From Nitrospirales bacterium (lineage in GTDB: Bacteria; Nitrospirota; Nitrospiria; Nitrospirales; UBA8639), in assembly GCA_963555755.3 (NCBI GenBank), contig OY820905.2, forward strand, positions 1,120,001 through 1,184,000: a stretch of DNA of 64,000 nt. The letters run 5' to 3'. A program made the translations under genes and the position numbers. Below are positions 17,825 through 19,040 of the stretch, in pieces; the first letter of the stretch is position 1, and each line of letters opens with the position of its first letter. The notes beneath the pieces are model-generated. The model was not told the DNA's origin. It saw only the letters and a list, made by a program, of their open reading frames with translations, and did no database searches.

Positions 17825-19040
17825 CTTGTATAATGCAAGGAAGGGTTGTAGCCCAACTCACACGAGCTGCCTCTTGTCTGAAGAGGGCATAGCCAACGTA
17901 GGGAAAAGGCTGTACCCTCACGGTATTGTGAATCCTGGCATGATAGACCGTTTGCCCTATGGGAATCAGCCCGTGACTCAGCGCAGGTCGTCATGCCCTT
18001 TCTCTGATGAACCCGAACGGTTGCCTGGGACACCAAGCCCGTATCAACAAGGTTGGGAGACAGAGCGATGAAATCAAAATCCTCAGAATTGTTTATCGGT
18101 ATCGACATTTGTAAAGCTCGATTAGACGTGGCAGACAATGCCAATTCGCTTCCCTGGTCGGTAGCCAACAACGACGCCGGCATCGCCGCGCTGGTGGAGC
18201 GGCTCCACGTCCTTCACCCCACTCTCATCGTGATGGAAGCCACAGGGGGGCTGGAAACGCTTCTGTATGCGGCCTTAACCACCGCCGGGTTGCCGGCGGT
18301 CGTCATGAATCCCCGTCAGGTGCGGGACTTTGCCAAGGCCCTGGGCACCCTGGCCAAAACCGATGCCCTGGACGCCCGAATCTTGGCGCGCTTCGGGGCG
18401 GCGATCCAACCGGTGGTCCGGCCCATGAAAGACGCCACCACCCAGGAATTGACGGCCTTGGTGACACGGCGACGGCAGTTGCTTGCCATGCAGACGGCGG
18501 AAAAAACCCGCCTCCAGCAAGCAGCCAAATGGATCCGCAAAGACATCAACGCTCATATCAAAGCCCTGGAAAACCGAATCAAACAAATCGAAGGCCACAT
18601 TGCCGAGATTATTAAAAAAACCCCCGGATGGAAAGAAAAAGATTCGCTCATTCGAAGTGTGCCTGGTGTGGGCAACGTCTTGTCAATGAATCTCCTCAGT
18701 AGCCTGACCGAACTCGGGACGCTCAACCGAAGAGAAATCGCCACGCTGGTGGGCGTCGCCCCCTTAAACCGCGACAGTGGAAACGTTCGCGGCAACCGAA
18801 GGGTCTGGGGAGGACGGGCCCAAGTCCGCGCCGCCCTCTACATGGCGGCCCTGTCCGCTTCACGATTTAATCCGGTCATCAAACCCTTTTACCAACGCCT
18901 ACTTGAAAAAGGGAAAAAACCCAAAGTGGCCCTCACCGCCTGTATGCGAAAACTTCTGGTCATTCTGAATACGATGGCCAAAACCCAAACAGCATGGAAC
19001 CCCAATCAATATTCAACCCTTGACTTTAATCACGGTTGCT
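17825..19040 (+). mobile_element. IS110-family element (IS621-like), copy 1
   Basis: CT core at 17825-26 and 19039-40; no TIRs; ~240-bp non-coding left end. Confidence 0.92.
17841..18067 (+). ncRNA. IS110 bridge RNA (predicted; ends approximate)
   Basis: Two internal loops carrying GTTTGCCCT / GACTCAG (target guides) and ACGGTTGC / ACAAG (donor guides); TATAAT at 17829. Confidence 0.85.

Follow-up and report, generated by a model that had tools for sequence, protein, structure and literature searches.

We found that the recombinase gene of an IS110-family element in the window, the 64,000-nucleotide stretch of DNA analyzed here, lacks a stop codon within the element. In the integrated state it encodes 324 aa and terminates at a TGA completed by host DNA, and the circular form cannot encode this native C-terminus. 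Our preferred reading, to which we give a probability of about 0.7, is that the TGA is specified by the element's predicted RNA guide and completed from the target, and that a frame of 81 codons opened in the circle is likely an unselected by-product. The features of the element are listed in Table 1.

Table 1 Positions in the window of the element, its predicted bridge RNA, and its target.
Feature	Position	Strand	Basis or remark
Left target half GCATGCC	17818..17824	+	Host repeat, outside the element; 72 exact empty sites
Left CT core, start of the element	17825..17826	+	Filled versus empty sites
Circle-only continuation of the recombinase frame, 81 codons	17826..18071	+	Ends at TGA 18069-71, overlapping ATG 18068-70
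TG and TATAAT, the -10 box of the promoter predicted at the circle junction; also right donor half (TGTAT)	17827..17834	+	Sequence
Predicted bridge RNA (5′ hairpin region, target-binding loop, donor-binding loop)	17841..18060	+	Ends approximate; guide matches, alignment of relatives
Predicted left target guide GTTTGCCCT	17950..17958	+	7/9 match to GCATGCCCT
Predicted right target guide GACTCAG	17975..17981	+	Reverse complement of CTGAGTC; TCA sets the stop codon of the recombinase
Predicted left donor guide ACGGTTGC	18017..18024	+	Identical to 19032-19039
Predicted right donor guide ACAAG	18047..18051	+	Reverse complement of CTTGT
IS110 recombinase gene, 324 aa	18068..19042	+	Last two stop-codon bases are host DNA
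-35 box TTGACT within the last codons (L-D-F)	19020..19025	+	The recombinase of most relatives stops here
Right CT core, T being base 1 of the stop codon	19039..19040	+	Filled versus empty sites
Right target half GAGTC, GA completing TGA	19041..19045	+	Filled versus empty sites
Hairpin and six T closing the host repeat, terminator-like, only in the integrated state	19190..19237	+	Fold -20.6 kcal/mol
Second window copy, same architecture	51754..52971	+	Core 51754-55, ATGA 51997-52000, TGA 52969-71

The element was identified as an IS621-like IS110 insertion of 1214 bp with a CT core. Its recombinase matched both PF01548 and PF02371, as well as the solved structures of IS621 (8wt6; E=1.5e-33) and ISCro4 (9t56), and alignment to these two structures assigned D13, E57, D99, D102, and S237, all in invariant columns, as the catalytic residues. 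The nearest named relatives of the protein carry the label Nitrospirota. Every mark of the IS110 (IS621-like) group that could be checked was found, and the element belongs to this group of the IS110 family. The genome contains 12 full copies and one fragment, and the window holds two copies. Differences between the two window copies were clustered in the gene (18560-18910 versus 52489-52839) and the non-coding region was nearly identical, which suggests recombination between element variants. In one genome copy, 6 nt are missing next to the left donor guide (C1:343016-343987), another, older copy has no right end (C1:2149272-2150237), and the 3′ fragment lies at C1:1572761-1573114.

The target of the element is a dispersed host repeat. 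This MITE/REP-like sequence (window 17763-17824 and 19041-19250) has the inverted ends GGGAATGTT[CG]AAAAA, and one end motif was matched 289 times in the genome; its inner palindrome gave 117 matches genome-wide, and the GCATGCCCTGAGTC site is present on only some variants of the repeat (72 exact). Downstream of the element, at a distance of 400 nt, a tRNA-Leu(TAA) gene lies on the minus strand (window 19442-19528). The window also contains three identical copies of a second mobile element (295-2213, 2209-4112, and 37338-39256; two in tandem), in which a DruA-like and DDE_Tnp_1_assoc ORF is followed by an overlapping DDE_Tnp_1 ORF. In addition, arrays of 18-nt tandem repeats were observed at 22919-23211, 24544-24800, and 20355-20498, the last one within an OmpA-family gene.

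The ends of the element were determined from its empty target sites. The genome contains 72 exact copies of GCATGCC-CT-GAGTC, and these fixed the core CT at 17825-26 and 19039-40; 12 left and 12 right junctions lay at the CT core in this specific target. Because the empty sites place the right core at 19039-40, the T of the TGA at 19040-42 is the core T, and its GA belongs to the target, just as the sequence-only reading of this DNA had proposed. No stop codon is present inside the element, and the target completes one in 11 of the 12 full copies, the remaining copy having lost its right end. The 68 proteins nearest in sequence (65-97% identity) include 63 that terminate at this point with H-[G/S]-C, and 7 of the 52 next-closest proteins end with [D/H]-S-C at the same position relative to the core.

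The non-coding region upstream of the gene contains predicted guides that match both target halves and both donor halves, and these guides vary with the targets among relatives; the stretch of the left target guide varies among relatives whose left targets differ. The right target guide is predicted to spell the stop codon of the recombinase itself. A single-sequence fold of the bridge RNA was no better than those of shuffles (z -0.81) and was uninformative. The bridge-RNA region measures 243-250 nt in the window's clade versus a median of 193 nt in relatives; about 50 nt of extra non-coding DNA with a bulged hairpin lies 5′ of the target-binding loop (17841-17935), and 51 nt of this extra sequence is deleted in locus L224. 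Closing of the circle joins TTGACT, 17 nt, and TG-TATAAT, which together match a sigma-70-type promoter in sequence only. By analogy with IS621 (PMC11208160), this circle-junction promoter would be active.

We next consider the origin of the missing stop. Element ends were rebuilt for 229 of the 281 protein-matching loci, from 301 loci in total; the 52 dropped loci had no donor guide (11), no start (11), no left end (9), or no right end (9), were partial (9), or had a stop in the gene (3). Of the dropped loci, L003, L004, L031, L045, L102, L132, L198, L225, L269, and L274 were then read by eye. L111/L219 and L112/L220 are the same places, and L056 (right end probably misassigned) and L178 (one copy only, its -35 box mutated) were left out. 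Clustering of the 229 loci at 90% protein identity gave 116 clusters, of which 107 contain an internal stop and 9 lack one. In 64 of the 116 clusters, the stop is located within the -35 box, 18 nt before the core; in the window's clade, this box is translated in a different frame (L-D-F), and the gene extends as far as the core. On the tree, the stop-less elements comprise the window's clade (support 1.0), a second lineage (0.999) consisting of L044, L134, L055, L269, L274, and L270, and weaker groups, and the sister group of the window's clade keeps the internal stop and has the targets CA or TC. The tree indicates that the internal stop was lost in at least three lineages. In the second lineage, the guide CTAGCAG spells TAG one codon into the target. 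We propose that a frame shift over the -35 box removed the ancestral stop. Such a loss would be tolerable because the target supplies a stop: after the guide had come to target CT-GA sites, an internal stop would have been dispensable and then lost.

Under this proposal, the guide would now likely have to retain GA or a similar pair beside the core. TCAG is kept in all 11 clade sequences, and the other three bases of the right guide take five forms. The guides of the clade, including the left guide, were retargeted several times, and those of L112 and L223 moved to CT-GACAA and CT-GAGAA with GA retained. Control pairs of 65-90% identity with different right targets shared these two bases in 68 of 518 cases, the pairs not being independent of one another. 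The right target guide of IS621 pairs over four bases (PMC11208158), which we infer to be the core and the next two target bases, here CT-GA. Pure compaction without any constraint would explain these data differently: GA would be kept only since the targets form one host-repeat family with CTGAG, and C-terminal read-through would be free in both states. Consistent with this explanation, elements that have their own stop also program GA more often than any other pair (20/91), the first two right-target bases are also constant in 3 of 8 control clades, and copies reading through into the flank exist (L111 by 27 aa and P0050 by 6 aa). The unchanged GA in the retargeted L112 and L223, as well as the TAG spelled by the guide of the second lineage, argue against it, and we consider pure compaction quite improbable. 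A constraint on the guide to keep GA next to the core is likely, with moderate support from these comparisons, but not proven.

The sequence-only reading had also described a frame that exists only in the circle, and its geometry was reproduced. In the 1214-bp circle, the recombinase frame continues as TGC-TTG-TAT-AAT and stays open for 81 codons up to a TGA over its own ATG, giving 405 aa versus 324 aa. As had been noted, the second window copy shares this architecture, and the frame is present in 11 of the 12 full copies: 10 give 405 aa, and the copy with the 6-nt deletion gives 403 aa. The caveat that chance might explain the frame proved justified, as open frames were common in controls. 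Dinucleotide shuffles gave P=0.014 for the circle frame and 0.055 for any of three frames; the shuffle was rejected as a null because real bridge-RNA regions are poorer in stops (0.027-0.028 per position). In 105 relatives with an internal stop (median region 193 nt), 74 of 315 frames were stop-free across the bridge-RNA region, and the equivalent frame was stop-free in 20 of 105. The corresponding counts were 13/54 in regions of at least 215 nt and 35/192 when frames in phase with the start codon were left out. A frame ending on a stop/start overlap was found in 13 of the 105 internal-stop controls, which cannot read through. An antisense reading of these 243 nt likewise lacks stops in one frame. 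An antisense ORF of 129 codons (window 17794-18183, minus strand) showed no Pfam match and is interrupted in two of five close sequences. The circle frame is real, yet it is approximately a 1-in-5 to 1-in-10 event in this IS110 family.

Conservation of the frame across homologs, the check named together with the original claim, turned out negative, and the outcome given there as refuting, early stops in this frame among homologs, did occur. Six sister elements of Nitrospinota type (65-75% identity, no internal stop) have early stops in the circle frame, after 31 codons in L111, L112, L221, and L225, 30 in L223, and 14 in L224; L111, L112, L221, and L223 have 2-4 stops in this frame across the region. 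The close subclade consists of five gap-free sequences, L004, and the partial L031. None of its five gap-free sequences (3-35 differences over 243 nt) has a stop in the frame, and the probability of no new stop arising there was 0.30 or 0.07 under two nulls. Among 56 derived alleles in the extension, 17 synonymous changes were counted versus 15.9 expected (P=0.42), and the synonymous:replacement codon counts between the window and L002 were 6:17 for the extension and 65:35 for the gene. In the second lineage, L044, L134, L055, and L269 are open for 61 codons to a TGATG overlap with the start codon; its sisters stop sooner (L270 after 48 and L274 after 58 codons), and codon-level selection was not detected in its circle frame. 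The frame of L102, whose left end is imperfect, has no stop for at least 62 codons, and L046 stops after 26. At control rates, finding two open lineages of three others has a P of 0.10-0.14. The +1 and -1 indels of L004 preserve the frame, and deletions that keep the frame occur in L224 (51 nt) and in one of the genome copies (6 nt). Frame-preserving indels were rejected as evidence of selection, since, of 7 net length changes counted on the alignment, about 4 were divisible by three versus 2.3 expected, and L223 and L225 break the phase.

We also searched for the extended protein and for the circle itself. Pfam gave no family for the 81-residue tail, and no database protein with this tail was found at E<=0.001 among 19 candidates, which is a weak test. 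Right-to-left circle joints were absent from the Logan contigs of 4 of 24 runs (X7 and X9, RNA; X2 and X10), and such contigs drop rare forms. Two RNA-library runs contain contigs over the element, which cannot show transcription. Viral contigs gave four matches to the right-end pattern, none with a recombinase; phage records gave no match, and a plasmid search returned 734 records, all below 60% identity. A lone circle-type 12-mer in the genome was rejected as a chance match with unrelated flanks, and the right ends of L174 and L284 were found to be ordinary rather than circle joints.

These results bear on the proposal that selection maintains the full 405-aa isoform as an integration/excision switch, or that ribosomes cross the bridge RNA and start again at the ATGA, forming a loop of translational coupling. 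The frame runs to a stop/start overlap in two independent subclades, and its shuffle P value is the 0.014 given above. It is broken, however, in the sister groups of both subclades and shows no codon-level selection; the same geometry occurs in the 13 controls unable to use it, and neither the 19 candidate proteins nor the four contig sets, both weak tests, yielded a long protein or a circle joint. Translation of the whole bridge RNA would also be expected to unfold the guide loops. We hence regard such a switch or loop as very improbable, and as a clade-wide mechanism it is largely refuted by the early stops in the sisters. The earlier suggestion of two isoforms holds in so far as the circle cannot encode the 324-aa C-terminus; its other part, full read-through to a long protein, was neither conserved among relatives nor represented among the 19 candidates.

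The tail might still act as a sensor of state without being conserved over its full 81 codons, if any tail of about 25 codons or longer were sufficient. Only integrated copies would then produce the native enzyme, and the circle, driven by its strong junction promoter, would give an enzyme with a tail or a tmRNA tag, whose lower stability or activity limits the recombinase dose. The two-C-terminus geometry that this requires is established. A consensus scan reported no plus-strand terminator-like site inside the element; the host repeat brings a hairpin and T-run, which the same scan does not report. Tails of at least 26 codons were found in all stop-less elements except L224 and the mutated single copy L178, versus 36 of 105 controls; over four lineages this corresponds to P ~0.014 with a threshold set post hoc. 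New stops numbered 0 versus 1.6 expected in the first 24 codons of the window's clade (P=0.20) and 0 versus 2.3 expected in the first 48 codons of the second lineage (P=0.08), both codon ranges having been chosen after the stops were seen. A precedent is the repressor of mycobacteriophage BPs, which is truncated by integration and whose long form is degraded (PMC4557955). Against a sensor stand the 14-codon tail of L224 and the internal stop kept in 107 of the 116 clusters. Furthermore, the tail ends -WETER, -KTVN, and -RTVK share no features and are unlike the consensus of the ssrA tag. A brake acting in the circle would also oppose integration, the step favored by IS621 (PMC13626964). We consider a sensor of this kind unlikely. 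Similarly doubtful is the broader idea that several IS621-like lineages independently wrote their stop into the guide, that the gene thereby senses whether it is integrated, that a tail of at least 26 residues or a tmRNA tag sets the dose or direction of the recombinase, and that two lineages can run round to the start codon. The evidence, weak and post hoc, leaves room for a preference for some tail and not for a specific 81-residue domain.

Here, we propose the following model for the preferred reading, a guide-specified stop with an unselected circle frame. The circle is predicted to produce the bridge RNA and the recombinase mRNA from the junction promoter, as in IS621. Polymerase running past the junction would add a tail to the recombinase, the length of which would be set by the bridge-RNA sequence (81 codons here and 14-31 in the sisters), and an RNA ending at the junction would be a non-stop message. 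The tail would hang off the end of the protein beyond the folded domain. It is likely tolerated because homology to the solved recombinases stops at residue 310-315, the structure model (low confidence; mean pLDDT 64, residues 187-255 below 50) shows nothing structured after residue 306, and a screen of bridge recombinases in human cells used C-terminal 3xNLS-P2A fusions (bioRxiv 2025.05.14.653916).

On the preferred reading, this clade of bridge recombinases would be an example of a programmable system that restricts its own targets, and the last seven residues of its recombinase would be dictated by promoter and donor DNA. In the mining of orthologues for editing tools, the true C-terminus would depend on the target, and the protein made from a circle-mimic plasmid would be a different one. 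Were the tail regulatory, it would add control at the level of translation to the directionality of IS110 elements, which is now explained by promoter formation and strand geometry.

IS621 of E. coli (PDB 8wt6) shares with the window element a DEDD and serine recombinase, the CT core, an upstream non-coding region with four guides, and insertion into a host repeat, as well as a sigma-70-type promoter formed at the circle junction (PMC11208160). Its right end is non-coding, with 52 bp of right end 5′ of the core in the library oligo (PMC11208160), whereas the gene of the window element spans the whole right end. Unlike in IS621, the guide of the window element is predicted to specify the stop codon, and the term "stop codon" is absent from the main text of PMC11208160. 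The direction of the IS621 reaction is put down to its junction promoter, to substrate geometry, and to handshake guides, and a single protein form is involved (PMC13626964). In passages of PMC11208160, PMC12288879, bioRxiv 2024.04.26.591405, and bioRxiv 2026.08.14.744561 and in a wider literature search, we found no description of an IS110 element with a stop set by its guide or with read-through in the circle; the element tables of ISfinder may already record such cases.

Other insertion sequences similarly have no transposase stop inside: IS870 and ISMt1 take it from a CTAG target, and IS1547, IS1110, and IS1239 from the flank (PMC13630536). The passages on these elements in that source make no mention of a circle form. 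The window element differs from the IS870 type in that the stop is predicted to be set, at a fixed position, by a reprogrammable RNA guide and in that the circle re-enters its own guide RNA. The IS900 group of IS1547, and IS1110, belong to the IS110 family. IS1547 is presented as a member of the IS900 family in the title of its report. Mycobacteriophage BPs resembles the window element in having its recombination site within the 3′ end of a gene and two C-termini depending on the state; there, it is a repressor gene, an ssrA-like degron is present on the long form, and switching has been demonstrated (PMC4557955). In the window element, unlike in BPs, it is the recombinase itself that is affected, the tail varies from 14 to 81 codons, and there is neither a conserved end nor a synonymous excess. 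Stops supplied by a flank or a target are already known; the bridge recombinase described here differs in that its guide is predicted to specify its own stop.
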